Assembly (NCBI GenBank): GCA_027340875.1
Contig: DAIENX010000007.1
Coordinates: forward strand, 10,750-74,749
Direction: 5' to 3'
Source: Elusimicrobiota bacterium
GTDB taxonomy: Bacteria; Elusimicrobiota; Elusimicrobia; Elusimicrobiales; UBA9959
Length of the DNA stretch: 64,000 nucleotides
Shown one piece after another: positions 4,438-33,205 of the stretch. The translations under genes and the position numbers were made by a program. The notes beneath the pieces were generated by a model, which searched no databases, was not told the origin of the DNA, and worked only from the letters and a program-made list of their open reading frames with translations. The number at the start of each line of letters is the position of its first letter. Position 1 is the first letter of the stretch.

Positions 4438-4470
4438 GGAAAAGGAAAGCCCCGCCGGAGCGGGGCTTTC
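4438..4470 (-). terminator. Intrinsic terminator downstream of ygeY
   Basis: 11-bp stem: GAAAGCCCCGC (4445-4455), 4-nt loop, GCGGGGCTTTC (4460-4470). On the minus strand it is followed by CTTTTCC. Confidence 0.7.
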
Positions 4471-4491
4471 GGTCTTAACGCCGCCGGGCGC

Positions 4492-5682: not shown

Positions 5683-5865
5683 TTTATCTCCTTGGGGCGG
5701 CCGGCGCCTGGCGGCGGCGCGGCGGCGTTACGCCCATATTCTATTCAATAGCCGCGGACCTTGTAAACTTGCCTTGCGCTTGCAGGCCCCGGGGAAAATA
5801 GATACAGTCTAGTTGCCCGCGGTCCGGGCCGGGAACTCCGTTCCCCCGCCGGGCCGCCTCCCGAT

Positions 5866-17328: not shown

Positions 17329-17330
17329 AG

Positions 17331-18245: not shown

Positions 18246-19122
18246 GGAATTCCGAGTCCCCGTAGGTTTCAAGATATTTGGCGTACACCCCGCCGCAGAC
18301 CGCCAGCTTCGAACAGGCCCGGCAGCAGCGCAGGGCCGTCTTTTCCCGGTGGCCGTCCACGGAGCGGCCGCGGCGGCGCAGCATCTCGGTGCGCCGCATC
18401 GCGAACTCGCAGGCGCCCGCCGGCACGCGCGGCAGGGCGGCGCAGAGCGGCACGTCCCAGAGGCGCAGGCTTCGCGGCCAGCGGCCGCGCGCGGGCGCCA
18501 GCTCCTCCACCAGCCTGGAATACCTGACCGAGAGCTTTTTCCAGTCCTTCAGCGCCCGGCCGAACGGCAGCAGTCCGTGGAAGACGATGTTCCTGAGGCC
18601 GCGCAGCGAGAGGAAGAAGTCCCGCAGCTCCCCGAGGCCGTCTATGTTCAGCGCGTTGACCGTGGCGTTCACCGAGACCTGCACCGGCGAGCCCTTCGGC
18701 CGCAGCGAAAGCAGGTTCGACAGGCCGCGCACGGTCTGCGCCCAGCTTCCCGCCGCCCCCGTTATGGCGTCATGCACTTCCGGTCTGGCCCCGTGCAGCG
18801 AGACTATCACCTCGCTGGCGCCCGAGGCCAGCAGTTTGGAGCAGTAATCCCTGTAGGCCAGCATCCTGCCGTTGGTTATGACGGAGATGCCGCTGCAGCC
18901 CAGCCGCGCGGCCTCCCCTATCAGGGCCGGCAGGTCCGGGTTCAGCGTGGGCTCTCCGGAGGTGAAGACCAGCCGGCGCCCCCTCGCGGGCGCCCGAAGC
19001 CCGTCCACGGCGCCGCCGCCCCGGCGGCGGCCGCGGCCGGAGACGTCGGTGCAGAAGACGCAGTTATTGTTGCACTCCGAAGAGGAGGCCGCGTAGAGGA
19101 CTTTCCCTGCCGCCTTAGTCAT
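18235..19122 (-). CDS. Radical SAM protein, CX2CX5CX3Y family paralogue
   Basis: The track's 676-aa ORF is an out-of-frame read-through of the upstream gene. The real start is ATG 19122, an ATGA overlap with the NifD-like stop. MTKAAGKVLYAASSSECNNNCVFC, TSGEPTLNPDL, ITNG, SLHGARPEVHDAITGAAGSW. C-terminal CRACSKLAVCGGVYAKYLETYG. Confidence 0.85.
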   Translation of the reverse strand: MTKAAGKVLYAASSSECNNNCVFCTDVSGRGRRRGGGAVDGLRAPARGRRLVFTSGEPTLNPDLPALIGEAARLGCSGISVITNGRMLAYRDYCSKLLASGASEVIVSLHGARPEVHDAITGAAGSWAQTVRGLSNLLSLRPKGSPVQVSVNATVNALNIDGLGELRDFFLSLRGLRNIVFHGLLPFGRALKDWKKLSVRYSRLVEELAPARGRWPRSLRLWDVPLCAALPRVPAGACEFAMRRTEMLRRRGRSVDGHREKTALRCCRACSKLAVCGGVYAKYLETYGDSEFHAL

Positions 19123-20408
19123 GCGCTCCTCGCCGCGTTGAACATCCGCTGCACCAGGTTCACGGCTCCGGAGAAGCCCAGGAAAGGCTCCGGCCGCAGC
19201 GCGTGGTACCTGTAGGACGGGAAACCCAGGTCCATGCCGGGCAGCCCCAGCAGGGCCGAGCGCCGGCCTACGCTGCTGGATACCAGCAGGTCGCAGCGCC
19301 CGCCGGAGAAAAGCTCCTCTATGGCCCGCCCGTAGGCGAGCACGGGGAAATCCCTCAGCACCGGTCTCCCCGGGAAAGCCGCCTCGGCCGAGGCCCATTT
19401 GCCTCCGGAGCAGGTCAGGAACACTCCGGCCACGCCCATGCCCAGCTCGGCCGCGAAGGCGCAGACCGCCTTTCCCAGGTACGGGTCGCCGGTGAAGCAG
19501 AGCCTTTTCCCGGCCAGCGCGCCGCCCACCGCGGTGCGGGCCAGCGAATGGGCCCCGGAGAGCTCCTCGGCTATGATCGCGTCCGCTTTCACGGCGGAGA
19601 TTCCGGCGGCGCCGGCGGCGGCTTTCAGCCAGGCCGCCGAGGCGGCCAGCCCCAGCGGCAGCTCCAGCTCCAGCAGCCTGGCGCCGGTCCTGCGGGCCAG
19701 CGTCGCGGCCGCGCCGCGCGCGTAAGGCAGGGAGATGATCAGGCCGGCCTGCTCCGCTTCCTTCAGGGAGGCGTAATCGCTCCCTCCGGGCCAGGCGCAG
19801 ACCAGGTCCAGCCCGGCCAGCGCCAGCATGCGGCGCAGCTCCGCGAGGTTGCCGGTCTGGTCGCCCTCGTTGCGGTCCATGAAATGCCCCACTACGGCGA
19901 CCTTGCCGCGCCGGCCGGCGCCCTTCTTCAGCGGCATGTCCGCGGCCATCCTTTCCAGCGCCAGCGCGTAGCCGTCCAGGTAGTCGAAGTCCAGCGCGTT
20001 GGCCGAGGCGCTCACCACCCTGGTGCCGCGCCGCCCCGTCAGCGAGGCGGCCAGCTTCCCGTAATCCCTCCCGGTGAGCGTCATGACCGGCAGCGAGGAG
20101 AGCAGCACCACGCCCGCGCGGCCGCACAGCGCGTCGGCGCGGGCCTCGGCGCCGGAGCTGTCGCCGGCTATTATCTCCCCGGCGTGGGAACCGGTATGCA
20201 GCACGCGGCTGTCGCCGCGGCAGTCCAGCAGCGTGGAGAACAGGTCGTGGGAGCCGTGCACGCACTCGGCCTTGCGCGTCACGCAGTCCGTGCCGTCCAC
20301 CACCGCGTAGGCGTCCGAGACGGCGTTGACGGCGAGGTACAGACCCGTCAGGAAGGACGGCGTGCAGCTCTCTCCCCTGTCCGGGGTATCAGTTCTCTTT
20401 TCTGCCAT
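19119..20408 (-). CDS. Nitrogenase component-1-type oxidoreductase family protein (NifD/NifE/BchN-like)
   Basis: Size is 429 aa. The N-terminal Cys pair SC(15)TPSFLTGLYLAVNAVSDAYAVVDGTDC(42)V has spacing like the BchN-type cluster ligands. The overall layout resembles three Rossmann-like domains (KVAVVGH, LISLPYARG, KRLCFTGDP). The start overlaps the upstream fusion gene by 20 nt. Where the third Cys ligand is expected the sequence reads LSSLPVMT. Confidence 0.8.
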   Translation of the reverse strand: MAEKRTDTPDRGESCTPSFLTGLYLAVNAVSDAYAVVDGTDCVTRKAECVHGSHDLFSTLLDCRGDSRVLHTGSHAGEIIAGDSSGAEARADALCGRAGVVLLSSLPVMTLTGRDYGKLAASLTGRRGTRVVSASANALDFDYLDGYALALERMAADMPLKKGAGRRGKVAVVGHFMDRNEGDQTGNLAELRRMLALAGLDLVCAWPGGSDYASLKEAEQAGLIISLPYARGAAATLARRTGARLLELELPLGLAASAAWLKAAAGAAGISAVKADAIIAEELSGAHSLARTAVGGALAGKRLCFTGDPYLGKAVCAFAAELGMGVAGVFLTCSGGKWASAEAAFPGRPVLRDFPVLAYGRAIEELFSGGRCDLLVSSSVGRRSALLGLPGMDLGFPSYRYHALRPEPFLGFSGAVNLVQRMFNAARSA

Positions 20409-22605
20409 AGCTAGCGAAATCCGACCCGCAGACGGCCAGGATGGTCTCCAGCGTCCTGCAGGCCCCGGCGAAGCCGGGCCTGAACATGTCCAGCGAGACC
20501 TGCGCCTTGCCGGCGTCGGAGACCCGGTAGTCGCAGGAGAAATCGCTCCAGACCGCGGAGATCGCCGGGGAAGCCAGCCTTCGGCGCAGCTCGGCCTCTC
20601 CGGAGAACGCCGCCGTTCTCATATTGAAGGCGGACAGCGGGCCGGAGAACCTCTTCAGGGCCTTCTTCTCCGGGGCGTATACCAGCAGCTCCAGGCCGAA
20701 GCCGGCCTCCGCCAGGAAGGCGGCCGGCGGCACCCCGGCGGAGCGGGCCGGCGTGAATATCCGCTCCAGGTCCGCCTCGCCGGCGACGAAAGCTATCCTC
20801 TTGCCGGCCGCGCGCGCCTTCAGCGCCTTCCATTCCCCAGCGCTGGCGGCCATCGCCGCCCGAACGGTACCGGCCGCCGCCTTGGAGCGGCCGGCCAGCG
20901 CGGCCGCCTCGAGCAGCCAGGCGGCCGTGGCGGAAAATCCGTAGGGCGAGGGCGGGCGCCTGAGACGCTTCTTCCAGCGCCCGCTGAAAGCGGCCTCCAG
21001 CCTGTCGTAGATGAAAGAATCGCTGAGCAGGGCGCTGCCGGCCGACCGCAGGGCCTCGAGGGACTCCCCGTCGTATTCCGGCAGCAGCCAGAACGCCTTT
21101 ACGCCGGCGGAAGAGAGTATGCCGTCCAGCTCCTTAAGGCCGGCCCCGCCGTAGCCGAGCAGAACGGCAGCGTTGGCGGGCAGCCGGAAGCGGCGCCGGC
21201 CGTCCCGCCTGGCGTAGGCGCGGAAGAAGCCCAGCAGCTCGCCGGGCACGGAGCAGCCGTCCAGGCAGGTGGAGCTGACCACCACCGGCACGCCGCTGGC
21301 CTTCTCGGCCTCGCCGGCCAGCTTCCGCACGTCCTCGCCCATAGCGTAAGGTACGCAGCCGTTGGTCATGAAGATATAATCCGGCCTTCCTCCGGCCAGG
21401 TCCGCGGCGATATCCCTTATGCGGCCGCCGCTGCCGAGTATCACTTCCCCTGTGCCCAGCGCGCTGGAGCTCCTGGTGGAGCCGGCTTCCGGGTGCAGCT
21501 CGCTGCCGGGCAGCAGGCTGGCGGGACCGCGCAGGAACGGGACCTTCTCGCTCTCCTCCAGCCGCTCCTGGCTGTAGGCGCATTCCCTGTCCTCGTGGGC
21601 CAGGAAAGCCTGCCGCCCGGTGTAGCGTACCAGCCCGGTGCCGGAGAAGACGGCGTCCGAGAAGAAGCGGCGCCAGCCGTCGCCGGCGCCCGAGGGCGGC
21701 CTGGCGGGCGAGGAGATCTTGAAGGACGCCCCGCAGGCCTCCGGCGCGTGGCAGGCAGCGGGCACGTCGGGCGGGGCGGCCGGAAGCACGCGCGGCTTCT
21801 TCCCGCGGCCGGAGAGCAGCGGCAGCAGTATCCTGCCGTCCACCGGCCGCGGCAGGGAGCCGGCGGCATCGGAAGCGTCCAGGCCGGCCTTTATCCTCCT
21901 GACCGCCGCGGCGAAAGGCGAGCGCGGGGCCAGGCGCACCACCGCGGCCCCGGCGGCTTCGGCCTCCCTGACCGCCGGGTCCAAAGGACAGCGGGCCAGT
22001 ATGCCGGCCTTTATCAGCGCGGCGAACTTGTCCACGGCGCCGCCGCGGCCGCCGTCCGCGCCGTTGGCCACCAGCCCCATCAGGCCGGCGCCGCTGCCGG
22101 CGTGCACGGTCATCGCGCGGGCTATGTTGTTGGCGGCGTAGAGTGACATCAGGTCTTCCGAGACCACTATCAGCACCTTGCGCCCGAAGCCTTTTCTCAG
22201 CGGCACGGCGAAGCCGCCGCAGACTATGTCGCCCAGCACGTCGAAGATCACCGCGTCGTAGTCGGCGGCCACCTTCTCGCGGGCGGATTCCAGCAGCTCG
22301 AAGGTCTTCAGCAGGCCCATGCCGGCGCAACCCTCTCCCGGAGCGGGGCCGCCGGCCTCCAGGCAGTCCACGCCCCTGCCTGTCCTGTAGATCAGCTTCT
22401 CCAGCGTCGGGCGGCCGCCGCGCAGCGCCTCCACCACGGTCGGGATGCCCTCGCCGCCTGTCAGCAGCAGCGCGGAATCGCTCTTCGGGTCGCAGCCCAC
22501 GTGCAGGACCCGCTTGCCCTCCATGGCGTACAGCTCGCTGAGGTTGGCTGCTATGGTGGATTTGCCTATCCCGCCCTTGCCCAGGATGACGATGCGCTCA
22601 GACAT
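20389..22605 (-). CDS. Fusion protein: NifH/BchL/CfbC-type Fe-protein ATPase (N-terminal) plus a nitrogenase component-1-like (NifK/BchB-like) domain (C-terminal)
   Basis: The N-terminal ~250 aa carry the P-loop ILGKGGIGKST, switch I GCDPKSDS, and both 4Fe-4S Cys ligand contexts (GEGCAGMG and DVLGDIVCGGFAVP). A Pro/Ala/Arg-rich linker contains CHAPEAC. The C-terminal ~400 aa carry component-1-like motifs (DYIFMTNGCVPYAMGEDV, VPVVVSSTC, KRIAFVAGE). Confidence 0.9.
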   Translation of the reverse strand: MSERIVILGKGGIGKSTIAANLSELYAMEGKRVLHVGCDPKSDSALLLTGGEGIPTVVEALRGGRPTLEKLIYRTGRGVDCLEAGGPAPGEGCAGMGLLKTFELLESAREKVAADYDAVIFDVLGDIVCGGFAVPLRKGFGRKVLIVVSEDLMSLYAANNIARAMTVHAGSGAGLMGLVANGADGGRGGAVDKFAALIKAGILARCPLDPAVREAEAAGAAVVRLAPRSPFAAAVRRIKAGLDASDAAGSLPRPVDGRILLPLLSGRGKKPRVLPAAPPDVPAACHAPEACGASFKISSPARPPSGAGDGWRRFFSDAVFSGTGLVRYTGRQAFLAHEDRECAYSQERLEESEKVPFLRGPASLLPGSELHPEAGSTRSSSALGTGEVILGSGGRIRDIAADLAGGRPDYIFMTNGCVPYAMGEDVRKLAGEAEKASGVPVVVSSTCLDGCSVPGELLGFFRAYARRDGRRRFRLPANAAVLLGYGGAGLKELDGILSSAGVKAFWLLPEYDGESLEALRSAGSALLSDSFIYDRLEAAFSGRWKKRLRRPPSPYGFSATAAWLLEAAALAGRSKAAAGTVRAAMAASAGEWKALKARAAGKRIAFVAGEADLERIFTPARSAGVPPAAFLAEAGFGLELLVYAPEKKALKRFSGPLSAFNMRTAAFSGEAELRRRLASPAISAVWSDFSCDYRVSDAGKAQVSLDMFRPGFAGACRTLETILAVCGSDFASYGRKEN

Positions 22606-23617
22606 GTCCCACCGCCTCTCCCGCGGCCGGCCGGGCGCGCAGTATCCGGGCCGCGGCGGCCGCGGGGATGGGGCGCAGTTCGCCGTCGCCGAACCTGTCG
22701 AGGTAGGCCCCGAAGACCCCGGCGCAGCGGTCCGCCAGCGCGCAGCCCGAGCAGCGCTCCGTCCTCGTCCGCTTCAGCGGCGGGACCACGCTCTTCTTAA
22801 CCGAGAGCACGTTCTCCTTCAGGTAGGAGCGCCCGCGCTCCAGCACGAGCCGCGGGGAGAAGAGCAGGTCGTTGGAGAAAGGGGCCAGCGGGCCCAGCGC
22901 GCAGAAAGGGGCCCCGGAGACGACCAGGCGGGCGCCGTTGGCGCGTATGGTCCCGGCGGCTGAACGCACGGCGCGCGCGAAGTCCGGCAGCCTCACGGTC
23001 AGGCTCCCGTAGGAGGAGCGCACGTTCCCCCACGGTATCAGCTGCGACATCATGTAGACCCCCGGCCGGCCGCGGGAGAAGACGTACTTCGCTATGTCCG
23101 CCGTTCTCCCGGAGTTGAGGGAGCAGACCACGGTGTGGCACATGAACAGCTTGAGCTTCCCGAAGCGTTCCACGTTCGAAAAGACCTTTTCGACCGTGGA
23201 GAAGGCGGACGGCATCCGCGTGACGGCGCGCGCCAGTCCCTCTTCGTTCCAGTGCACAGAGAGGCAGAGTTCGTCGATGTCCGGCAGCAGCCGTGCCGCC
23301 GCCGCGGGGTCGGCCAGTCCCGTGCCGTCGGTGGTGACCTGCACCGAGTAGCCCAGCAGCTTGGCTATGCGCAGTATGCGCCCGAACTGCGGATGCACGG
23401 TGGGCTCCCCGCCCAGCAGCGTCAGGTGCCCGGCGCCGCCGCTCCGGAGCTTCTTCATTATCGAGCAGGCCTCCGCGAGCGGCATGAAGCCGCCGCCGGA
23501 GCGCAGGCTGCGCGCCTCGCAGCAGAAGACGCAGCGGCGGCGGCAGACCTTGGAGATCCGCAGCTCGGCCCGCTCCCCGGCGGCGCCGGGGGCGCTCAGT
23601 AGGTCCTCTCCGTGCAT
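22598..23617 (-). CDS. Radical SAM protein, CX2CX5CX3F family paralogue
   Basis: ISKVCRRRCVFCCE, LLGGEPTVHPQF, TTDG, SVHWNEEGLARAV. C-terminal CSGCALADRCAGVFGAYLDRFG. The start is taken at ATG 23617 (22-nt overlap with the upstream gene). Its stop overlaps the NifH-fusion start by 8 nt. Confidence 0.8.
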   Translation of the reverse strand: MHGEDLLSAPGAAGERAELRISKVCRRRCVFCCEARSLRSGGGFMPLAEACSIMKKLRSGGAGHLTLLGGEPTVHPQFGRILRIAKLLGYSVQVTTDGTGLADPAAAARLLPDIDELCLSVHWNEEGLARAVTRMPSAFSTVEKVFSNVERFGKLKLFMCHTVVCSLNSGRTADIAKYVFSRGRPGVYMMSQLIPWGNVRSSYGSLTVRLPDFARAVRSAAGTIRANGARLVVSGAPFCALGPLAPFSNDLLFSPRLVLERGRSYLKENVLSVKKSVVPPLKRTRTERCSGCALADRCAGVFGAYLDRFGDGELRPIPAAAAARILRARPAAGEAVGHV

Positions 23618-24327
23618 ATGTTGTACTTCACGTAATTGGGCGCGCGGTCCTCGCGCACCCGGCTGTCCACGGCCCGCTGCTTCCGCGGCCTGGCCCCGTC
23701 CGGCCTGAGCGCGGCGTAGTCCACGTGCGTGTCCGTCTCGTTCTCCTTGAGGTCCCAGACCGCGCATTTCAGCCCGAGCGCCATCATCCCGGAGACGGTC
23801 TCCTTTATCCTGCCCTGGTTGGCCTTCAGGCGCAGCGTGTGCATCTCTATCCTAGTGCCGGGAAAGGACTTTATGTTCTTTATGGCCTTCAGCAGGGCCG
23901 CGTAGCTGCCTTTCTTCCTGGTCACGGCGTCGTGCACGGCCGCGTCCGGCCCGTAGACCGGCAGCAGGAAGGCGTTGACCCCGGCCGCGACCAGCGCGGC
24001 CGTCAGCCGGCGGCTGCGCAGCTTGACGCCGTTCGACATCAGCTCTATATAGGCGAAGCCTTCCTTCACTCCCATCCTGACCACGGACTCCAGCAGCCAC
24101 GCGGGGGCCATCGTGGGCTCGTCGCCGCCGAGGCAGAGCCGCCTGACTCCGCGCCGGCGGAGCACCCGCATCAGCGCGAGGAAGCGTATCAGCACCTCGC
24201 GCCACCGCTCCTCGGTGAAGGTGAAGGAGGTCTTGTGCGGGTGCCTGTTCCGCTGGCAGAAGACGCAGTCGATGTCGCAGCCGAACGGGAACGCCAGCAG
24301 CAGCTTGTCCTCCTTCCTGGCGTTCAT
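23596..24327 (-). CDS. Short radical SAM protein without a C-terminal Cys motif
   Basis: The ATG at 24327 makes an ATGA overlap with the upstream stop. MNARKEDKLLLAFPFGCDIDCVFC (CX3CX2C), LGGDEPTMAP, MSNG, PVYGPDAAVHDAVTRKKGSY. Size is 243 aa. Confidence 0.75.
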   Translation of the reverse strand: MNARKEDKLLLAFPFGCDIDCVFCQRNRHPHKTSFTFTEERWREVLIRFLALMRVLRRRGVRRLCLGGDEPTMAPAWLLESVVRMGVKEGFAYIELMSNGVKLRSRRLTAALVAAGVNAFLLPVYGPDAAVHDAVTRKKGSYAALLKAIKNIKSFPGTRIEMHTLRLKANQGRIKETVSGMMALGLKCAVWDLKENETDTHVDYAALRPDGARPRKQRAVDSRVREDRAPNYVKYNICTERTY

Positions 24328-25310
24328 GCGGCCTTCACCTCCGTTATGGGACGGAAGAAAGGGGCCTGCTCCGGGAAGGCCTCGAGATACTTCCGGAAGA
24401 TGCCTCCGCAGGAGCGCCGCAGCGCGCAGCGGCCGCAGGACTTCAGATAGACGCGCCGCCGCGTCGGGCGCAGCGAGACCGTCTCCTTCAGGCCGGCGCG
24501 CCCGCCGGGGAGCGCCGCCCTCTCCACGGTCAGCCGCGGCGAGTAGTAGAGGTCGTTGGAAAGGTCGTAATGACCGTTCAGCGAACAGGCCGGCGCGCCG
24601 AAGAAGCGCAGCGTCACGCCGAACAGCGCGGCCTGCTCCCGCAGGTCCCCTATGCGCCGGCCTATGGCGGTGAGGTCCGGAGCCAGCGAGGCGTAGTCCT
24701 CGCAGGCGCCGCCCTCCGGGGCCGGGTTGGAGATCATGTAATGCCGGACGAACCCAGAGCGGGAGACCAGGCGCAGGATGTCCGAGACCAGCTTGAAGTT
24801 CTTTTTGACGGCCACGGTGTTGACCATCAGGAACAGCCTGCCGCCGCCGGCCTTGCCCAGGTTGTCCAGCGCGGCCATGGCGTCGTCGAAGCTGCCCTTC
24901 CTGCCGGTCAGCGCGTCGTGTATCTTGGCCGTAGGTCCGTGGCAGGAGAGCATGGCCTCGTCCAGCAGCGGCGCGGTACGGCGGACGAAAGCGGGATCGG
25001 CGAAGGCGAGGCCGTTGGTGGTGACGCTGGTCCTGAACCCAAGCGCCCTGGCCGCACCGAGGGCGGCCGGCAGCGCGGCGCACAACGACGGCTCTCCTCC
25101 GGTGAAAGTGACGTGGGAGAAGCCGGCCCTGCGTTTCTCGCGCAGGATGCCTGCTATCTCCGACCCCGTCAGGTCCAGCGAGCCGAACCGGCGCAGCCTG
25201 TTCCGCTCGCTGCAGAACAGACAGCTGTTCTCGCAGGTGTAGGAAACGTGTATCTCCAGCCGCTCCACCGCGGCTTTCTTCGCTCCAGCGCCGTGTACCG
25301 TTCGGCTCAT
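24324..25310 (-). CDS. Radical SAM protein, CX2CX5CX3F family paralogue
   Basis: The ATG at 25310 makes an ATGA overlap with the upstream stop. HVSYTCENSCLFC, FTGGEPSLCAAL, TTNG, SCHGPTAKIHDALTGRKGSF. C-terminal CGRCALRRSCGGIFRKYLEAF. Confidence 0.85.
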   Translation of the reverse strand: MSRTVHGAGAKKAAVERLEIHVSYTCENSCLFCSERNRLRRFGSLDLTGSEIAGILREKRRAGFSHVTFTGGEPSLCAALPAALGAARALGFRTSVTTNGLAFADPAFVRRTAPLLDEAMLSCHGPTAKIHDALTGRKGSFDDAMAALDNLGKAGGGRLFLMVNTVAVKKNFKLVSDILRLVSRSGFVRHYMISNPAPEGGACEDYASLAPDLTAIGRRIGDLREQAALFGVTLRFFGAPACSLNGHYDLSNDLYYSPRLTVERAALPGGRAGLKETVSLRPTRRRVYLKSCGRCALRRSCGGIFRKYLEAFPEQAPFFRPITEVKAA

Positions 25311-26434
25311 GCGACGCACCTCCCGGAACGGACCGGCTTCAACGCCGAGAAACCCCTGGCCATCACGGTCCATATCCTGGCTCCGCGGCAGGCCGGGCCC
25401 AGCCGGCAGCGTCGGCAGGCGGAACCCTTCACGGTCAGCCTCTCCGCTATGAAGAACTCGGCCACCTTCATCAGGCCGGCCCTTGGCGTTATCTTTTTCA
25501 CGGCCCTCCGCTTCTCCGGCAGGCAGGCCGGCGCCGGGACCGTCTTAAGGGAACCTTCCGCCCGCAGCAGCTCGAGGTCCGAGCAGAACTGTGCCATCAC
25601 GCAGGACGCGCACCGCGCCCCCTTGCAGTGCATCTCCTCTCCGGCGTACAGGAAGGCCTCCAGCGGCCGGCGCATCCCCCGCACCTCGTCCATCAGCTTG
25701 CCGGGGTGCTGTATATACCGCTCGTTGCCCTCCAGCACTGCGGCGGGGAAGCGGTTCGTCCAGACGTGGGCGTTGACGGATTCGGAGAAGCGGAACACCT
25801 TTTCCAGCACCTTCCTCTTGGAAGCCGGGTCATAGGAAAGTTTCTTCCAGTTCTCCCACGCCCTGCCGAAAGGTATCAGGTTCAGCAGGTCGTACTCGTC
25901 CACGCCGAGGCGGTGCAGCAGGCCGACTATCTCGCGGACGGAGTCGGCGTTAAGCCTGTTCACCACGATGTCGCTGCTGACTATCAGGCCCGGCACCTTC
26001 TTGGCGTTGGCGATGGCCAGCAGGGTCTGCGCGAAAGCGCCGGGGACCCCGACCAGCGCGTCGTGCTGCCCGGAGGTGGCCCCGTGCACGGAGAACGTTA
26101 TCTCGGTGAGCCCGGCGGCCACAGCGCGCTTCAGAAAGCCATCGTAGCAGAACATCCGCCCGTTGCTGATGGCCTGCACGTGGGTATAGCCGAGCTTCCT
26201 CGCCTTCGCCACTATGGCCGTGAATTTGGGGTGTATCGTGGGCTCTCCGCCGCTCAGCACCACCCGGCGGCAGCCCTCCGCCCGGCCCCGCCTCAGGTCG
26301 GCCTCTATCTCTCCGAGCGGCAGATGTTCGCCGCAGATGGAGTCCGCGTCCAGACAGAAAAGGCAGCGGTTGTTGCAGGCCCTGGTCAGCCTGACCCATT
26401 TCCGCTTTTCCGGGGCGGCGGTTCTTTCCGTCAT
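25307..26434 (-). CDS. Radical SAM protein, CX2CX5C family paralogue with an additional CX4CX2CX5C motif
   Basis: The track ORF is 5'-extended. The ATG at 26434 lies 4 nt after the upstream TAG. LTRACNNRCLFC, LSGGEPTIHPKF, ISNG, SVHGATSGQHDALVGVPGAF. PFGRAWENWKKLS is shared with 18235-19122. Also CKGARCASCVMAQFC and CRRCRLGPAC. Confidence 0.85.
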   Translation of the reverse strand: MTERTAAPEKRKWVRLTRACNNRCLFCLDADSICGEHLPLGEIEADLRRGRAEGCRRVVLSGGEPTIHPKFTAIVAKARKLGYTHVQAISNGRMFCYDGFLKRAVAAGLTEITFSVHGATSGQHDALVGVPGAFAQTLLAIANAKKVPGLIVSSDIVVNRLNADSVREIVGLLHRLGVDEYDLLNLIPFGRAWENWKKLSYDPASKRKVLEKVFRFSESVNAHVWTNRFPAAVLEGNERYIQHPGKLMDEVRGMRRPLEAFLYAGEEMHCKGARCASCVMAQFCSDLELLRAEGSLKTVPAPACLPEKRRAVKKITPRAGLMKVAEFFIAERLTVKGSACRRCRLGPACRGARIWTVMARGFSALKPVRSGRCVA

Positions 26435-26438
26435 AGTT

Positions 26439-27386
26439 CTATCCAAGAAGTATCCTCTCTGCCAGCCTGTCCGCGGCCATCCCGCCGGCCACGGCCTTGG
26501 CCCCGAAAAGCTTCTTCGCCATGCCGGAGTAATCAGGACGGCGTCCGCTCCCGGCGCCCAGAGCCTCCAGCCCGCCGGCCAGCATCTGCGCGGCCTGGCC
26601 CGGGTCCCTCGCGGCAAGGACGAGGTTGGAGTGATAGCACCTGCCGTCAGTGTCCACCGTGGTCCCGGGATTGAAAAGCGGCACCGGGCCTTCGCGCGAG
26701 GCGTTCTCGATGACAACGGCCCCGGAATCGGCCAGTTCCCTGATATGCCTCAGCGCCCTGGCGAGCTTGGCGAGGGCGGCCGGCGTCCATTCCCGGTAAT
26801 AGGCCGGCAGGACGTTGACCCTGGGCGGTCGTCCGCGCGAAGCGGCTATCACGCGCTTCAGGACCCCGAGCGAAGAAAGCGGGTCGCGCTCGGGCAGCAG
26901 CAGGTTCCAGATCAGGTTGGGCAGGGCCGCGAACCTGCGGCTGACGCTCACCGAGGAGTTAATGTTCACCTGCACCCACGGCCGGGCCGAGAAATACCGG
27001 AGCTTCGCCGCGTCCAGCAGCAGGCCGTTCGTGCCCACCTCCGCGCGGCCGCGGTAGCCGGCCGCCTCCAGCATGCCTATGCCAGTCCTCACCAGCCCGA
27101 AGCGCAGCAGCGGCTCCCCGCCGAAAAACTTGACCGCGCCGCCCCCCAGGGCGGCGGAACAATACTGCTTTATAGCGCTTTTCAGGACCGCCGCGGGCAT
27201 GTCCGCCCGCCCGGTCGCGACGGGACATTCGGGGCACGCCGACTGGCAGCGCCGGGTGAGGATAAGGGTCAGCTGCGGGGCCGGCGCGCCCCCGCGGCAG
27301 GCCGGAAGGGCCGAGTTACTGGCCCTTCGCCGGTTCCTTTCCTTTGGTCTGCTTGCCCTGCGGCTGTACGCCCATCCTCTTGTCAT
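26439..27386 (-). CDS. Radical SAM-like protein (divergent, GGEPLL type)
   Basis: LILTRRCQSACPEC (CX3CX2C), FFGGEPLLRFG, GTNGLLLD. It lacks the CX2CX5C tail. The ATG at 27386 overlaps the upstream gene by 71 nt and I found no better start, so the start is uncertain. Confidence 0.65.
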   Translation of the reverse strand: MTRGWAYSRRASRPKERNRRRASNSALPACRGGAPAPQLTLILTRRCQSACPECPVATGRADMPAAVLKSAIKQYCSAALGGGAVKFFGGEPLLRFGLVRTGIGMLEAAGYRGRAEVGTNGLLLDAAKLRYFSARPWVQVNINSSVSVSRRFAALPNLIWNLLLPERDPLSSLGVLKRVIAASRGRPPRVNVLPAYYREWTPAALAKLARALRHIRELADSGAVVIENASREGPVPLFNPGTTVDTDGRCYHSNLVLAARDPGQAAQMLAGGLEALGAGSGRRPDYSGMAKKLFGAKAVAGGMAADRLAERILLG

Positions 27387-28365
27387 CTTCAGCCTTCTGC
27401 TTTACCATGTCGGCCATTATCTTGTGGCGGAACGAGCTCGTGCAGTAGCCGGTGGCGAGCTTCTTGGCCAAAGGTGCGCAAACCGACGGGTCCCTGGACT
27501 GCAGCACGTGGAGCAGCCATTTCTCGTCCGGGGTGGAATCCCCCCTCACCAGCGCGGCGCTGAGCTGGCATTCTTTCTTCCGCGGGCCGCTCAGTTTGCC
27601 GCAGGCCGCCCGCCCGTTGATGAACAGGAAGTTGGATTCGCAGTTGGGCGGCAGACCGAGCGAGCGGCACTCCGGGGTCCGCCTCTTCGCGATAGAGTCG
27701 GTAATGAACCGACAGAAGTCGGGGCTGGGACGCCCCCCCCTGAACGCGTTGTTAACGAACTTCTCGCATTTCCCGTCGTTCGTCTTCCTGTTCAGGGCCG
27801 AATACATGAAATCGTAGTAATCGGCGGCGAAACAGACCCTCTCCAGGTTCTGCTGGACGCAGTCGAGACGGCCACCGCTGATAAGCCGGCAGACGCCGTA
27901 GTCCAGGAAGAGATCGAGTATAGTCTCATCCTCGGGCATGTTGCTGTTGGTATTGAAGAAGAACCGGAAGTTCTTGTCGAAATGCCTGACGATAGCGTCC
28001 GGGTTGTCCGAGAAGGCCTTTATACAGTCGCTGTCGGCCGCGTTCACCGGGACGTCCTCTGGCTGGGAATAATACCCGCCGGAGGCGCTTTCGTACTGGC
28101 CGCTCTGGGGGATATTGCTCTGGGTATCGGTCGACGCCTGGCTGACCAGCGCGGCGGCGTCCGGAGGAAGCGCCTGGCCGACCTCCTGTTGCTGGGCCGC
28201 GGGGTAGGCCGGAGCCGCCGGCTGCTCGATGCCTATCTTCGCGGCGTTCCTGTCGGTGACCATCTTCAGGGCGAAAAGCACGCCCATCAGCGCCACCAGC
28301 AGGCCGATAAGCAGCTTCGGGGACATCGCCCCGGGTCTGTAGCCTTTCCTCATCGCGCTCACCAT
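27316..28365 (-). CDS. Membrane-anchored or exported Cys-rich protein, paralogous to the C-terminal domain of 7373-8779
   Basis: N-terminal helix LLIGLLVALMGVLFAL, then a low-complexity linker, then about 230 aa with about 13 Cys. MPEDETILDLFLDYGVCRLISGGRLDC aligns with MPEQHLWDALAEYGVCVSLSKGSLEGC. DPSVCAPLAKKL aligns with PEACAPLSEKI. ATG 28353 is an alternative start. Confidence 0.7.
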   Translation of the reverse strand: MVSAMRKGYRPGAMSPKLLIGLLVALMGVLFALKMVTDRNAAKIGIEQPAAPAYPAAQQQEVGQALPPDAAALVSQASTDTQSNIPQSGQYESASGGYYSQPEDVPVNAADSDCIKAFSDNPDAIVRHFDKNFRFFFNTNSNMPEDETILDLFLDYGVCRLISGGRLDCVQQNLERVCFAADYYDFMYSALNRKTNDGKCEKFVNNAFRGGRPSPDFCRFITDSIAKRRTPECRSLGLPPNCESNFLFINGRAACGKLSGPRKKECQLSAALVRGDSTPDEKWLLHVLQSRDPSVCAPLAKKLATGYCTSSFRHKIMADMVKQKAEDDKRMGVQPQGKQTKGKEPAKGQ

Positions 28366-28655
28366 TGCCCGTGGCTGCCGTGCGAACCGTGCGAACCGTG
28401 CGAGCCGTGGCTGCTGTGCGAACCGTGCGAACCGTGCGAGGCGTGACTCACGTGGCCCGACGCGTTGCCGCTGCTGTGGAAGTAGTTTGCATGCGCTAGC
28501 GCGTCAGCGTGCTCTGTCACCACTCCGACGGCGGTGGCTACCAGTCCGAGGACGACCGCGGCCTTGACCACGTCGCTCTTGACTATCTTGCCCTCCTCGC
28601 TCGAAAGGAAGCGGGAAAGGTCTACCGACAGTTTCTTTTTCTGTTTTCCGGCCAT
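28359..28655 (-). CDS. Small membrane-anchored His-Xaa-Ser repeat protein (HxsA-like candidate rSAM substrate)
   Basis: Size is 98 aa, with a basic N-terminus and one hydrophobic helix (AAVVLGLVATAVGVV). The C-terminus holds nine consecutive H-x-S triplets: HVS HAS HGS HGS HSS HGS HGS HGS HGS, then HGQW. It lies 19 nt downstream of an rSAM/SPASM gene. Confidence 0.7.
   Translation of the reverse strand: MAGKQKKKLSVDLSRFLSSEEGKIVKSDVVKAAVVLGLVATAVGVVTEHADALAHANYFHSSGNASGHVSHASHGSHGSHSSHGSHGSHGSHGSHGQW
28369..28449 (-). repeat. Coding tandem repeat, 9-nt period nested in a 36-nt duplication, encoding (S-H-G)n
   Basis: The plus strand reads ccgtggctg ccgtgcgaa ccgtgcgaa ccgtgcgag, then a repeat of the same 36 nt with one mismatch (28369-28404 versus 28405-28440), then one degenerate unit. 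Confidence 0.9.
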
Positions 28656-28674: not shown

Positions 28675-30144
28675 CTATACGTGTATCCCGGCCGCTCCGG
28701 CGCTGCTGCCGGCCCAGGATTCGAACAGCTTCCTAACCTTCGGCTCGCGCAGCCGCGCGAACAGGTAGTCCATCACTCCGGTGTAGATCTCGCACCGGAA
28801 GTTGGGATGATGCATGTACAGGTCGTTGTGCTCCGAATAGTTGAAGACCGGGCATACGCCGCAGTAGGGCTTGTAGACGCAGGAGGAGCAGAGCGTCTGT
28901 ATGTCCGTGACCGACGCGGTGACCACGCATTTCACCACTGAGCTCGACGCCAGGTCCGCGTAGGTCTCCTTCTTCAGGTCGCCCATGCAGAACGAATCGG
29001 TCCCCTCCGCCGCCAGCATGCGCCCCTCGTCGCAGGTGAAGACGCGGCCGTCGTAGTCGTAGGCGATCTGGCCTATCCCCGCCCCGCAGGGGGACCGGAG
29101 GTCCATGAAGTTCGGGTCGGTGCCGGTCAGGATCTTCCTCAGGAATATCCTGGCCGTGTGCTCGACCAGGGAGGCCTTCTTCTTCAGGTTCAGCTCTATG
29201 ATGTAGTCCAGCGCCTTCGTGTAGAACTCTATGTACTCCCGCGCCGTGTAGCCTATCCCAGGCCAGGCCTTCTTCGCCGCGCCGAACGGATTGAGGAAGC
29301 GCAGGAAGATGGAGCGGGCGCCGATGCGGACGTATTCGTCCACTATGTCCTTGTGGCGCCCCAGGGACTGCTGCGTCACCGTGAGCAGGGCGTCCGGCCC
29401 GTTCTTGGTCCTGGCCGTGCGCTTCTTGATGGTCTTCCACCACTTCACGACCTGGGCGTGGCTGCTGCCGCCGGTGGCCACCCGGTTCTTGTCGTGCAGG
29501 TCGGCGGGACCGTCCAGCGAGGTGCAGATGGCGACGTTGTGCTTGAGCAGGAAGTTCAGCCTCTCTCCGGTCATGGCCGACAGGTTGGTGACCAGGCTCA
29601 GGCTCACCTTCTTATCGAAGGTCTTCGTGCGGGCGGCGGCCTCGTTGACCACGAACTCCAGCACGGGCCAGTTGAGCAGCGGCTCCCCGCCCTGGAACTC
29701 TATGGTGATGTTGTCGGCCGGGGAAGCGAAGATGGCGTCCAGCACCCTGGAGGCCGTCTCCCTGTTCATGTCCAGGCCGCGGCCGCTCCTCTTGGACGAG
29801 GCGTGGCAATACACGCAGTCGTGGTTGCAGCGCCGCGTCAGCACGGCTATGTGCAGCGCCGGGCCGGAGAAGAGGAAATGGTTCTTCTCGAGCCACCTCT
29901 CGGCCAGGCCGGAAAAGTCCATGTAGTCGCGGACGAGGCCCTTGCGGGAGAGGTCCTTGTACTCAGCCGAGTCCTTGTCCAGCTTGCCGGCCGCCAGCCG
30001 CGAGAAGACATCGCCGGAGATGAAGGCGTGCTCGCCTATGTCGTTGGTGACCAGGTATTCGTCGCCCCACTTCTTGTAGCGCAGAAAACCGGTCTTCTTC
30101 GGGTCGAAGTCAATTCTTTCTTTTTGCTTTTCTGGCCTTCGCAT
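28675..30144 (-). CDS. Radical SAM/SPASM peptide-maturase-like protein (HxsB-like)
   Basis: LTRRCNHDCVYCHAS (CX3CX2C), FQGGEPLL, VTNLS, SLDGPADLHDKNR. SPASM-type cysteines are present (RSPCGAGIGQIAYDYDGRVFTCDEG, then CSSCVYKPYCGVCPVFNY). An N-terminal extension of about 105 aa precedes the core. Confidence 0.9.
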   Translation of the reverse strand: MRRPEKQKERIDFDPKKTGFLRYKKWGDEYLVTNDIGEHAFISGDVFSRLAAGKLDKDSAEYKDLSRKGLVRDYMDFSGLAERWLEKNHFLFSGPALHIAVLTRRCNHDCVYCHASSKRSGRGLDMNRETASRVLDAIFASPADNITIEFQGGEPLLNWPVLEFVVNEAAARTKTFDKKVSLSLVTNLSAMTGERLNFLLKHNVAICTSLDGPADLHDKNRVATGGSSHAQVVKWWKTIKKRTARTKNGPDALLTVTQQSLGRHKDIVDEYVRIGARSIFLRFLNPFGAAKKAWPGIGYTAREYIEFYTKALDYIIELNLKKKASLVEHTARIFLRKILTGTDPNFMDLRSPCGAGIGQIAYDYDGRVFTCDEGRMLAAEGTDSFCMGDLKKETYADLASSSVVKCVVTASVTDIQTLCSSCVYKPYCGVCPVFNYSEHNDLYMHHPNFRCEIYTGVMDYLFARLREPKVRKLFESWAGSSAGAAGIHV

Positions 30145-30571
30145 TTTTGTTTTCTTCCCACGGTATGGCTATTCCCAGAGCATCGGTCTTGTAGTCGCCG
30201 CTCTCCGCCTCTTTCAGCAGCTTCTCGATCTCCTTCTCCAGCTCCGCGTCCAGCACCGGGGCGGCGGCCGCCGGTTCCGCGGGTCTGGGCTGCGCGGAAA
30301 GAAGGGCCCTGACCACTATCCTCTCGCGCAGGGCCTGGTTCACGGCCGAGACCTTGAGGCGGAAAGCGTGGTGCAGCAGTTCGTTGCGGAACTCGCCCTC
30401 CAGGTCGCGGCCCGCCGGGAACTTGCCGTTCTTGGACTCCAGCACGGCCGAGAGAGCGCCGCCCTTGTCCTTGCCCAGCTTCACGTACGCGGCCTTGGAG
30501 AACGTGTATGCCGCGGCATAGACGCACTCGATAGGGTAAACGGAAAGATCTATCTTCACCTGTATTTTCAT
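30110..30571 (-). CDS. Small hypothetical protein, possible HxsD-like accessory protein
   Basis: Size is 153 aa. GAGGA SD lies 5 nt upstream of ATG 30571. The 3' end overlaps the start of the rSAM/SPASM gene by 35 nt. ELLHHAFRLKV is loosely reminiscent of the LLNDYxLRE signature I recall for HxsD. The C-terminus is acidic then basic. Confidence 0.55.
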   Translation of the reverse strand: MKIQVKIDLSVYPIECVYAAAYTFSKAAYVKLGKDKGGALSAVLESKNGKFPAGRDLEGEFRNELLHHAFRLKVSAVNQALRERIVVRALLSAQPRPAEPAAAAPVLDAELEKEIEKLLKEAESGDYKTDALGIAIPWEENKNAKARKAKRKN

Positions 30572-30590: not shown

Positions 30591-31154
30591 TTATCTCAAC
30601 CTGCAGCAAAGCATTTCGCCAGTAGCCTGTATACCGCCGGGAGGGCCCATCTGGTACATCTGGTTGCCGACGCGGGCGGCCACTACGGCGGTCTTGGCGC
30701 CGAGACACATCGTGACGACGCCGTAAGAATAGCTCTGCCAGGAACAGTCCAGCGGGACCGTCGGGTCGGACCAGCGGGCCAGGCCGTTGCCGTCCGAGGT
30801 AAGCAGCCGGCCGTTGGCCTGCGTGCCGTCCTGCAGCTCGAAGCTGCCGACCACGTGGAGTTTTGCGGCCGGGGAAGGGGTGCCTATTCCAACATTGCCG
30901 CCGTCCCTGGCCAGCAGGGTCTGGCTGGTGGTAAGTATGCTGACGTAGCCGCCGTAGGGGGCAGGGTAATAAGTGGTCAGCGTAAGCGTCTCGGAGCCGA
31001 TGAAGCCCGGATGCCAGCAGATGAACATGAGGGCCATCAGCGCCACCACCGTCTTCCGGTGCGTCCTGCCGAGCCTGTCCAGCCAGGCAGGCAGGCCGGG
31101 CTGGTGAAGCCAGTCCAGCGAGAACCTTATAACGATATCGCGGTTATTTTTCAT
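30591..31154 (-). CDS. Membrane-anchored surface protein with a tail-fibre-like YYP-x-P-x-G-x-Y / GNVGIGT motif
   Basis: Start taken at ATG 31154 (MKNNRDIV). Hydrophobic helix VVALMALMFICW. TLTTYYPAPYGGYVSILTT, then GGNVGIGTPSPAAKLHVVG, a pattern common in phage tail-fibre and endosialidase-chaperone-like proteins. The tail is Cys-containing. This is the first gene after the promoter and leader. Confidence 0.6.
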   Translation of the reverse strand: MKNNRDIVIRFSLDWLHQPGLPAWLDRLGRTHRKTVVALMALMFICWHPGFIGSETLTLTTYYPAPYGGYVSILTTSQTLLARDGGNVGIGTPSPAAKLHVVGSFELQDGTQANGRLLTSDGNGLARWSDPTVPLDCSWQSYSYGVVTMCLGAKTAVVAARVGNQMYQMGPPGGIQATGEMLCCRLR

Positions 31155-31340
31155 AGTCGCCGCCCCCGATAAGCGCGAAAAGCACATCCTTGCGCAACGG
31201 CCCCTACGGTCGGGACGCGTTGCATATCACACGGACCGCCACGGGCTTGCTCCCATGGCACTCACCGATCCGGATTTCGTTCGCGCGCCTACGCGCATGC
31301 TAGCCATCCGCCGGCTTACGCCGGCGATACTTCGACTATA
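31155..31340 (-). promoter_or_regulatory. Long structured 5' leader (candidate cis-regulatory RNA) of the 24-kb gene train
   Basis: About 185 nt lie between the predicted -10 and ATG 31154. Minus-strand hairpins include CGCCGGC-GUAA-GCCGGCG (a GNRA loop), UGCGCG-UAGG-CGCGCG, GCCAUGGG-AGCAAG-CCCGUGGC, and a 12-bp bulged helix UGCAACGCGUCCC...GGGGCCGUUGCG. I could not recognise a known riboswitch class. Confidence 0.3.
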
Positions 31341-31346
31341 TTATTA

Positions 31347-31375
31347 ATTATAGCAGAAATCTTTCCGATTTTCAA
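31347..31375 (-). promoter_or_regulatory. Near-consensus sigma70 promoter for the long minus-strand operon
   Basis: The minus strand reads TTGAAA (31375-31370), a 17-nt spacer, then TATAAT (31352-31347). It sits in an AT-rich island inside otherwise GC-rich DNA. Confidence 0.6.
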
Positions 31376-33176: not shown

Positions 33177-33205
33177 TTGACAGCCGCCGGGTTTCGTCTT
33201 ATAAT
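33177..33205 (+). promoter_or_regulatory. Consensus sigma70 promoter for the small-ORF / rSAM-SPASM operon
   Basis: TTGACA (33177-33182), a 17-nt spacer, then TATAAT (33200-33205). Both hexamers match consensus perfectly. Confidence 0.65.

Follow-up and report, generated by a model that had tools for sequence, protein, structure and literature searches.

What does a nitrogenase-type Fe-protein do when it is built into the same polypeptide as a subunit of the catalytic component, and what might such an enzyme reduce? The question is raised by a locus of an Elusimicrobiota bacterium (assembly GCA_027340875.1, contig DAIENX010000007.1), from which we analyzed a stretch of 64,000 nt (positions 10,750 to 74,749), called the window below. 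On its minus strand, to which the coordinates of these two genes, their domains and the surrounding gene array refer, a single open reading frame (ORF) of 738 amino acids (aa; 20389..22605) joins a NifH-type Fe-protein domain, a linker and an alpha-type component-1 domain, and overlaps by 20 nt the ORF of a 429-aa beta-type partner (19119..20408). The two genes very probably encode a tethered, ATP-dependent reductase with a translationally coupled beta-type partner, and the placement of this enzyme among the Group VI nitrogen-fixation-like (NFL) systems (NflH/NflD/NflK) is well supported. Reports of the bare fusion of NifH to a component-1 subunit go back to 2012, and public data contain it in abundance; the new element is the recurrent linkage of Group VI NFL genes to HxsD-HxsB-HxsA4 clusters, which suggests a new candidate substrate. 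The best explanation, which we advance tentatively, is that the self-tethered reductase acts in the maturation of an HxsA4-type His-Xaa-Ser peptide.

The fusion is a genuine gene and not a frameshift or assembly artefact. Relatives with split genes exist (L067, in which the two genes overlap by 4 nt at stop and start, L086 and L088; related loci and proteins carry L and P numbers here), so that a single-base error could fuse or split such a pair, but an erroneous joining of separate nifH-like and nifD-like genes is barely conceivable in view of the following evidence. Among 5.8 billion proteins searched, the PF00142+PF00148 architecture occurs in more than 100 clusters, of which 63 are full-length fused homologues of 30-85% identity from independent assemblies that retain this architecture, and a one-residue variant of the fused protein (P0001) was assembled from a different ENA sample. 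The codon-position signal runs unbroken across the linker, third codon positions in the annotated frame having a GC content of 0.96 and the other two positions one of 0.71-0.73, and the net length differences between the fused gene and its counterparts in L001 and L005 are multiples of 3. On the 738-aa chain, Pfam places Fer4_NifH at aa 4-265 (E 1.5e-65) and Oxidored_nitro at aa 379-628 (E 1.1e-14), and the AlphaFold model (mean pLDDT, the per-residue confidence score, of 85) shows two confidently predicted domains with a disordered stretch between them (aa 270-307). An earlier note on this DNA, made from the sequence alone, had described a single 738-aa Fe-protein/component-1 ORF followed by a separate second component-1 gene, and had proposed looking for a stop or frameshift near the linker and checking the C-terminal domain by hidden Markov model; the ORF calls and Pfam bear the description out, the ORF is uninterrupted, and the C-terminal domain is Oxidored_nitro-like.

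The Fe-protein (NflH) domain (aa 1-265, 21811..22605), identified by Pfam, Foldseek and PDB matches, carries the P-loop GKGGIGKST (aa 9-17), the switch I motif DPKSDS (aa 39-44), DVLGDIVCGGF, GEGCAGMG with Cys93 (22327-22329) and DVLGDIVCGGFA with Cys129 (22219-22221). P-loop, switch regions and both cysteines, the equivalents of Cys97 and Cys132 of Av NifH, are invariant in the 63-sequence alignment (63/63 for either cysteine), as expected from the intact ATP-binding and [4Fe-4S] motifs read from the sequence before. By sequence, the best PDB matches of the domain are MarH (193 bits), NifH (170) and BchL (135), and the whole fusion model reaches a target-normalized TM-score of 0.86-0.88 to NifH/MarH in Foldseek, a comparison in which the best 50 matches were all NifH and which is therefore silent on the alpha or beta type of the C-terminal domain. 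The NCBIfam scores of the domain lie below every cutoff (CfbC 222 vs 402 bits; NifH, TIGR01287, 213 vs 394; BchX 177 vs 331; BchL 170 vs 345). Met96 (22318-22320), within GEGCAGMG, aligns with NifH Arg100, which is a docking residue and an ADP-ribosylation site of NifH. More than 90% of the fused homologues have Arg at this position, Met being found in the window protein and the four relatives nearest to it, and the docking surface may thus be altered in this subclade through Met96.

The two domains are connected by a flexible linker of about 45 aa (aa 266-310, 21676..21810; pLDDT <50 over aa 270-307), the least conserved part of the protein (query aa 262-306), with a column identity of 0.27-0.40 and a length of 44-84 residues among the homologues. 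The CHAPEAC motif highlighted before is indeed present in the window protein, in a linker that was taken to be longer, but it is absent even from the 85% relative, and the homologue alignment has no Cys-rich column there. An extra metal site at CHAPEAC is thereby rejected.

Which of the two component-1 subunits is carried on the fused chain had been read the other way round, as a NifK/BchB-like fused domain with a NifD/BchN-like partner; profile scores and Foldseek contradict this and reverse the labels. A profile of the fused domain (aa 311-738, 20392..21675) compared with PDB chains gave 118 bits for the component-1 chain (519 aa) of methylthio-alkane reductase (9d9u_A/9fmg_A), 80-100 for NifE and 68-79 for NifD/VnfD/AnfD, compared with 38-67 for beta-type chains. 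The profile of the partner (Pfam Oxidored_nitro, E 5.5e-41) scored 77 bits against NifK/AnfK and 59 against NifN, with alpha-type chains at 22-62, and its AlphaFold model (pLDDT 90.9) matched exclusively beta-type chains (NifK/AnfK/VnfK/NifN) among the best 11 Foldseek hits, at query-normalized TM-scores of 0.78-0.81 versus 0.70-0.74 for alpha-type chains, with a sequence identity to NifK chains of 15-18%. On these matches, together with a 3+1 cysteine pattern in the wider family and the gene order, the fused domain is assigned to the alpha type (NifD/NifE-like) and the partner to the beta type (NifK/NifN-like), in canonical H-D-K order, an assignment that is firm only relative to Nif-type proteins.

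The cysteine complement of the pair is reduced. The alpha domain opens with a conserved W311-x-x-F314; canonical position 1, 26 residues before Cys342, is Cys in 42 of the 63 homologues, Ser or Ala in the three next-closest relatives and Ser316 in the window protein. Position 2 is Cys342 (21580-21582) in the motif H337-x3-E341-C342, conserved in 62/63, and position 3 is Cys417 (21355-21357) in TNGCVPYAMGEDV, conserved in all 63. A profile-NifE alignment shows a non-Cys residue at the alpha-Cys275/NifE-Cys250 position. In the partner, Cys42 (position 2, 20283-20285) is the sole cysteine that is invariant among 40 homologues, and Cys15 (position 1, 20364-20366) is shared by the window protein with its 89% relative and no other homologue. 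The N-terminal pair of cysteines described earlier as BchN-like is hence present here, but being lineage-specific it is rejected as a feature of the family. At position 3 of the partner the Leu pointed out before is confirmed as Leu106 in LSSLPVM; this position is Cys in 0/40 homologues, and a Cys three residues further on in 24/40 corresponds to Met109 of the window protein. The window pair thus fills four of the six canonical P-cluster positions (Cys342, Cys417; Cys15, Cys42), three of them conserved in its subclade as two in the fused chain and one in the partner, in comparison with 3+1 in the wider family. Because at most four of six positions are occupied, the complement is too small for a P-cluster, in line with the earlier suggestion of a non-P-cluster, and an inter-subunit cluster of the [4Fe-4S] type may reasonably be assumed. 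A further cysteine varies between the chains of related pairs: the window and P0002/P0122 pairs combine partner Cys15 with Gly324 in the fused chain (21634-21636 in the window), and the P0003/P0123, P0004/P0126 and P0005/P0127 pairs combine Cys324 in the fused chain with Ala or Val15 in the partner. The fourth cysteine appears, from these five pairs, to move between the subunits, which would fit one four-ligand [4Fe-4S] site at the interface.

To which family does the enzyme belong? Its closest relatives are annotated proteins of Elusimicrobia metagenome-assembled genomes (MAGs), and full-length homologues come from GWA2_69_24, GWF2_62_30 and RBG_16_66_12, the genomes behind the definition of Group VI. 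Meheust et al. described in 2020 'group VI' nitrogenase paralogues with many radical-SAM (S-adenosylmethionine) genes beside them and predicted a function in tetrapyrrole reduction (bioRxiv 10.1101/765248), and a 2026 Chemical Reviews article characterizes the group by at most four of six P-cluster cysteines and missing ligands (alpha-Cys275 and alpha-His442) of the iron-molybdenum cofactor (FeMo-co; PMC13474568); its taxa are Elusimicrobia, Myxococcales and Gracilibacteria (bioRxiv 10.1101/765248; PMC13474568). The window enzyme shares with this group the Walker A and switch I/II motifs and the Cys97/Cys132 equivalents of the NifH-like part, very divergent D/K-like subunits with at most four of six P-cluster cysteines, the lack of a FeMo-co Cys275 equivalent and of NifB, and a neighborhood rich in radical-SAM genes, B12-binding and HemN_C types among them. 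In contrast to the window, the text of the two Group VI papers (10.1101/765248; PMC13474568) is silent on an NflH fusion, on HxsC-like radical-SAM neighbors and on HxsA4, HxsB and HxsD. No NifB-type radical-SAM gene and no second component-1 pair was found within the 64-kb window, where 19 radical-SAM-type ORFs were inspected (one of them a weak sub-threshold match), and tblastn detected neither a second NFL copy nor a free NifH in the window. In a rough neighbor-joining tree of 95 NifH domains, drawn without support values or labeled Group I-V references, the window sequence groups with fused and free sequences of RBG_16_66_12, GWF2_62_30 and Myxococcales MAGs.

The proteins lie outside the NifH, BchL, BchX, CfbC and BchN/B equivalog families, all NCBIfam scores being far below the cutoffs; for the component-1 subunits these are 54 vs 324 bits for BchN, 38 vs 509 for BchB and 22 vs 529 for BchZ, and the NifK/NifD models reach ≤27 bits. 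The earlier expectation that the proteins do not sit inside a known functional family of the BchL/N/B type is thereby upheld, while the novelty claimed for the fusion and the group is not, since nifH-nifE-like fusions were published in 2012 (PMC3464626) and 2024 (PMC11237513) and the family had been published as Group VI NFL. The published fusions have the same layout as the window, with H joined to an alpha-type subunit and a beta-type gene next, but were reported from Archaea, Firmicutes and Deltaproteobacteria and without a radical-SAM or Hxs context. Unlike nitrogenase proper (NifHDK/VnfHDK/AnfHDK), the window has neither an equivalog-level NifH nor six P-cluster cysteines. It resembles dark-operative protochlorophyllide oxidoreductase (DPOR; BchL2 + BchN2B2) and chlorophyllide oxidoreductase (COR) in the combination of an ATP-dependent Fe-protein dimer with a heterotetramer. 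These enzymes act on a conjugated heterocycle and possess a single inter-subunit [4Fe-4S] cluster, held by three cysteines of one subunit and one residue of the other, with no heterometal cofactor. In contrast, their reductase is a separate, transiently docking dimer, their equivalog scores are not reached by the window proteins, and the ligand split in the window lineage is 2+1 as conserved, or 2+2 in the window protein itself. CfbCD is similar in that CfbC is the best NCBIfam model for the H domain; it differs in that the score of 222 bits stays below the cutoff of 402, CfbD is one subunit type as opposed to two distinct ones here, and CfbC and CfbD are unfused.

The gene context points to a possible substrate. 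The Hxs families were reportedly defined by Haft and Basu in 2011. The NFL genes lie midway in a co-directional array of about 20 kb on the minus strand (from ~31187 to 8804), whose genes overlap or nearly abut and in which terminator-like sites are not in excess. Near its start, this array encodes an HxsD-like protein of 153 aa (30110..30571; TIGR03976, 48.2 bits, narrowly missing the cutoff of 50), the 489-aa radical-SAM/SPASM maturase HxsB (28675..30144; TIGR03978, 489.4 bits, above the cutoff of 370) and a 98-aa HxsA4-type precursor (28359..28655; NCBIfam NF038313, 64.4 bits, above the cutoff of 55); in related loci, the proteins at the HxsD position beside hxsB carry Pfam PF27806 HxsD. 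The precursor has a Lys-rich N-terminus, an FLSSEEGK motif, a hydrophobic helix, ten His-Xaa-Ser repeats and a C-terminal HGQW, its C-terminus reading HSS...HVSHASHGSHGSHSSHGSHGSHGSHGSHGQW with a (His-Gly-Ser)n tail. The fusion is preceded by five radical-SAM genes (22598..27386; Pfam Radical_SAM), namely 26439-27386, a weak sub-threshold Pfam match with no NCBIfam match, and 25307-26716, 24324-25373, 23596-24333 and 22598-23767, which match HxsC4 or HxsC best at 61-95 bits; all five have CxxxCxxC. Further HxsC-like genes follow downstream at 18235-19092, 17331-18272, 16399-17487, 14236-15198, 13385-14374, 11629-13392 (two domains) and 8804-9982. These about 12 paralogues have HxsC or HxsC4 as their best NCBIfam match (44-126 bits) and stay below equivalog level, with a top score of 126 bits to HxsC4 (cutoff 500) and of 106 to HxsC (cutoff 268).

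This arrangement recurs. The order HxsD-HxsB-HxsA4-...-rSAM(5)-[H-alpha]-beta-rSAM(3)-membrane protein, with rSAM for radical SAM, is kept in L001 (85% relative) and L005 (66%), and a linkage of NFL and Hxs genes was found in eight loci (the window, L001, L005, L017, L067, L086(+L009), L087 and L088) of at least three lineages, spanning fused and split NFL systems in Elusimicrobia, a Myxococcales MAG and an unclassified bacterium (L017). In the Myxococcales MAG (L067), HxsB is followed by nifH, alpha and beta, with HxsA4 immediately after beta and then three HxsC-like genes; L086 is RBG_16_66_12 and contiguous with L009. HxsA4 orthologues are present in L001, L005, L017, L067 and L086-L088; in L017 and L067 HxsB and HxsA4 pass the NCBIfam cutoffs, and in L086-L088 the HxsA4-like peptides were recognized by sequence and HxsB by homology and source annotation, these being assignments without a cutoff test. 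The loci came in part from a genome scan with the fusion alignment, covering one genome per GTDB species, in which the patterns picked were NifH motifs and the hits were then checked by ORF. Genes of the ordinary NifH/CfbC type make up most of its 80 loci, the species of the window itself is not among them, and the scan doubled as a control set: ~74 other NifH-bearing loci had neither His-Xaa-Ser repeats nor a strong match to HxsB. In the literature text searched, nothing joined the terms 'His-Xaa-Ser' and 'nitrogenase'.

The repeat number of the peptides rises from ~10 in the window to ~30 in L086 (11484-11924) and L087 (11480-11938), and further examples are encoded in L089 (11480-11914) and L067 (14330-14713); across loci they keep the leader FL(S/T)SEEGK, the hydrophobic helix and usually the C-terminal HGQW. 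The nearest characterized system is the gammaproteobacterial HXS antiphage system, with which the window shares HxsB at the equivalog cutoff, an HxsD-like protein, a His-Xaa-Ser protein and the order HxsD-HxsB-...-HxsA. In E. coli, this system has four genes; HxsA is cleaved and modified by +8 Da on an SHRSS motif, and the entry of phage DNA is blocked (PMC13128918). That paper (Li et al. 2026) makes no mention of nitrogenase-like genes (PMC13128918). Canonical HXS differs by its four genes with one HxsC and by an HxsA with a signal peptide, a domain that binds peptidoglycan, and five repeats, whereas the window has a 98-aa HxsA4 with ten repeats, about a dozen HxsC-like paralogues, none at equivalog level and none between hxsB and hxsA, extra membrane proteins and the NFL enzyme.

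What is established for nitrogenase, DPOR and NifEN allows a working cycle to be inferred. Two H domains would dimerize around one [4Fe-4S] cluster with Cys93 and Cys129 of each chain as ligands, take up MgATP and dock over the alpha/beta interface. From there, the dimer would hand single electrons to one inter-subunit cluster of the [4Fe-4S] type, held by the conserved alpha Cys342 and Cys417 and beta Cys42 and, in the window protein, probably by beta Cys15 as the fourth ligand, and the electrons would then be delivered to a substrate that the alpha subunit binds. An (H-alpha)2(beta)2 particle would have a single Fe-protein dimer, which would need to alternate between its halves, or the pairing would have to take place across particles. 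The fixed 1:1 stoichiometry deduced earlier holds for the chains, with one H per alpha, but not for the dimers, as one H2 per alpha2beta2 is half of the canonical two. As to the substrate, HxsB, HxsD and the roughly dozen HxsC-like radical-SAM enzymes could modify the HxsA4 tail, cross-linking or desaturating its His/Ser repeats, after which the NFL complex could supply low-potential, ATP-coupled electrons for the reduction of an unsaturated or heterocyclic product, in a possible parallel to DPOR, COR and CfbCD, which act on conjugated pyrrole rings. A radical-SAM-modified HxsA4 peptide, or a product derived from it, is proposed as the substrate from gene context only, and with the same reserve as the pathway. 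The wider proposal, that Group VI NFL enzymes, fused or split, are peptide-modifying and catalyze an ATP-driven reductive step on the (His-Gly-Ser)n of HxsA4 after the HxsB/HxsC-like radical-SAM battery, seems doubtful.

The prediction published for Group VI (10.1101/765248; PMC13474568) leads to another substrate and is the main rival. The NFL enzyme would be a reductase of a tetrapyrrole or novel cofactor, acting on a C=C bond in a tetrapyrrole, either scavenged or endogenous, whose macrocycle is tailored by the radical-SAM enzymes, and the Hxs genes would form a separate neighboring system, or HxsA4 would bind the cofactor. We regard this as unlikely, if by no means far-fetched. By NCBIfam score, the nearest characterized proteins are CfbC, BchX, BchL and BchN/B, whose substrates are tetrapyrroles; the closest solved-structure matches of the H domain are MarH and NifH. 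The window encodes a BchE-like B12-radical-SAM enzyme (214 bits), three HemN/HemZ/HutW-like radical-SAM enzymes and a protein whose HEAT repeats are of the PBS-lyase type, but the scanned ORFs, which make up most, not all, of the 64 kb, include no gene for tetrapyrrole biosynthesis. HemN-class and B12-class radical-SAM enzymes also occur in peptide natural-product pathways, which counts against this explanation, as do the radical-SAM genes immediately flanking the NFL genes, with their best matches to HxsC/HxsC4 and not to tetrapyrrole enzymes, and the recurrence of the linkage with HxsA4/HxsB. A tandem relative in L004 stands beside a FecCD/Peripla_BP_2 importer of the haem/B12/siderophore type, which counts in its favor; the 'TP_methylase' fusion in L002 scores as an RsmI-like rRNA methyltransferase and is weakened as evidence for a tetrapyrrole.

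The alpha/beta pair could also be a NifEN-like scaffold with H as its ATP-dependent maturase and NifB-like radical-SAM enzymes, building a complex metallocluster for which the His-rich HxsA4 tail would be the metal carrier or final ligand. The strong NifE similarity of the fused domain (80-100 bits), a partner that matches NifN as well as NifK, the radical-SAM partners and the (His-Gly-Ser)n sequence, an obvious metal-binding one, would suit such a role, and so would the 3+1 cysteine pattern of the wider family, as NifEN holds its [4Fe-4S] cluster in a 3+1 manner. It is nonetheless quite improbable: the window radical-SAM proteins match HxsC, HxsC4 or MoaA-like families best and none is of the NifB type, the L-cluster-binding residue equivalent to alpha-Cys275/NifE-Cys250 is missing, NifH is free in the Nif system, and E. 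coli HxsA is covalently modified (+8 Da), not metallated (PMC13128918). Very unlikely, finally, is an NFL complex that has no organic substrate of its own and reduces the dozen radical-SAM enzymes at their [4Fe-4S]2+ clusters where low-potential ferredoxin or flavodoxin is scarce. Radical-SAM enzymes fused to Flavodoxin_2/FMN_red domains in L091 suggest a dedicated electron-donor slot in these clusters, but this is a single case, an Fe-protein alone would suffice for the purpose, and the conserved alpha/beta pair with its inter-subunit cluster site argues for a catalytic component.

Several observations weigh against a peptide-reducing NFL enzyme as proposed here. According to the 2026 review, no Group VI enzyme has been biochemically characterized (PMC13474568). 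Whereas the alpha/beta distinction is clear relative to Nif/Vnf/Anf/NifEN, it is ambiguous for the fused domain relative to DPOR (BchB 57-60 bits, BchN 37-53), and cluster ligation, docking geometry and one dimer per tetramer are inferences. The HemN-like and BchE-like radical-SAM enzymes of the window fit the tetrapyrrole idea equally well. Three HxsB contexts picked irrespective of NFL genes (L089, L090 and L091) have HxsD-HxsB-HxsA4-rSAM but no NFL genes within 10 kb, and the Group VI loci L002, L003, L006, L007, L030 and L063 have no HxsA4 within 10 kb. Because none of the three unbiased picks has NFL genes within 10 kb, a constant association is ruled out and the NFL enzyme is accessory, not integral, to HxsA4 clusters.

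For Group VI, gene context had so far given reviewers only a vague hint at tetrapyrroles (PMC13474568), and the Hxs linkage names a concrete candidate, a small, genetically encoded peptide that is testable by co-expression and mass spectrometry. If the proposal is true, this would be the first nitrogenase-family enzyme acting on a substrate derived from a ribosomal peptide. The tether is of interest in itself. Whether the Fe-protein needs to dissociate in every cycle is debated for nitrogenase, and the question has been raised again by CfbC, which is reported in a persistent complex with CfbD (PMC13474568). A natural Fe-protein tether, if confirmed, would show that full dissociation of the components is unnecessary for turnover, and the natural H-alpha, H-H-alpha and split forms within one family could be used to address this.

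Dos Santos et al. noted in 2012 nifH-nifE-like fusions followed by nifN-like genes ('data not shown') and, in some unfused NFL pairs, the 2+1 cysteine pattern that is conserved in the window's subclade (equivalents of alpha C88, alpha C154 and beta C95; PMC3464626), and Padalko et al. described in 2024 a NifH-NifD/E fusion (cluster 443) in Methanomassiliicoccales, with composite and split forms in Methanosarcinales and Methanomicrobiales (PMC11237513). We found H-alpha fusions of ~700-800 aa that keep the three alpha cysteines also in Sporobacter, Peptococcaceae and Bathyarchaeia, and in the cultured organisms Methanoculleus palmolei DSM 4273 (L018, 9974-12160), Methanosarcina sp. KYL-1 (L039, 9992-12388) and Clostridium tetanomorphum DSM 4474 (L065, 9995-12181). 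The latter three represent a second, distinct family of such fusions with the full cysteine triad (GCAF / HxPxSC / CPxGIIGDD), and the strains would be tractable sources for the biochemistry of a tethered Fe-protein. In the neighbor-joining tree, the Group VI sequences form one clade in which fused and free forms are interleaved, and the fusions of Archaea and Firmicutes and the tandem forms lie elsewhere, which suggests several fusion and fission events.

Tandem NifH-NifH-alpha proteins of ~1,080-1,106 aa (P0007, P0010, P0014; L004, 10001-13321; L013, 2627-5884) have the P-loop and both cluster cysteines in either NifH copy and are followed by a beta-type gene. They show selection for tethering a whole Fe-protein dimer, and would restore the canonical ratio of two Fe-protein dimers per tetramer. 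The L004 pair stands directly after a Peripla_BP_2/FecCD/ABC importer operon. Free tandem NifH-NifH proteins of 584-636 aa (P0102 and P0107, ~585 aa; P0029) are in effect a covalent Fe-protein dimer. The alpha-domain family as a whole comprises 551 clusters (50% identity, E<1e-3), and NifH motifs occur in 19 of the 150 top representatives. The other top alpha-type representatives, with a median length of 598 aa, possess a conserved, unrelated N-terminal extension of ~150 aa that has no Pfam match (P0169, P0172, P0176, P0184; L002, 335-2062 and 5052-6743); the same domain is found within the long linkers of 970-1,008-aa fusions from Myxococcota (P0094, P0051).

The remaining genes of the array include its first gene (30591..31187), for a 198-aa protein with a hydrophobic N-terminal segment, no family match and an orthologue in L001, which is preceded by a promoter-like site matching at 11/12 positions (31375..31347, minus strand). 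Directly after hxsA4 follows a Cys-rich, membrane-anchored protein of 349 aa (27316..28365), also without a family match and at the same position in L001 and L005. A 403-aa membrane protein (15183-16394) and a PapB/HxsB-like radical-SAM enzyme (10602-11624) are encoded downstream of the NFL genes. The BchE-like, B12-binding radical-SAM protein mentioned above (492 aa, 31506..32984, minus strand; Pfam B12-binding and Radical_SAM) scores 213.8 bits for BchE, below the cutoff of 481, and at the far end of the radical-SAM array are the three HemN/HemZ/HutW-like genes, one with a HemN_C domain (1497-7365), with an M20 peptidase and the HEAT-repeat protein beside them (1497-7365 and 7373-8779). Divergent from the array, a PapB/SCIFF-type radical-SAM/SPASM peptide maturase is encoded at 33420-34907 (plus strand; PapB 215 bits, cutoff 340), and a consensus promoter-like site matching at 12/12 positions lies at 33177-33205.

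The window also encodes, at the cluster's edge, a 511-aa protein of the flavin amine-oxidase family (34979-36514, minus strand). A protein of the same length and family adjoins B12-radical-SAM genes upstream of HxsD in L091 (533-2068), and this oxidase may belong to the pathway. The L091 cluster, which has HxsA4 but no NFL genes, encodes two radical-SAM proteins fused to Flavodoxin_2/FMN_red (3762-5843 and 18860-20884), in which the flavodoxin-type domains may act as integral electron donors. A barnase-like ribonuclease with its barstar inhibitor and a subsequent PIN-PhoH protein (36669-37672 and 37809-39236, minus strand) have no relation to the NFL cluster, and the region 39348-46936 holds an ordinary outer-membrane block of BamA-Skp-LpxD-LpxC-FabZ-LpxA-LpxI.

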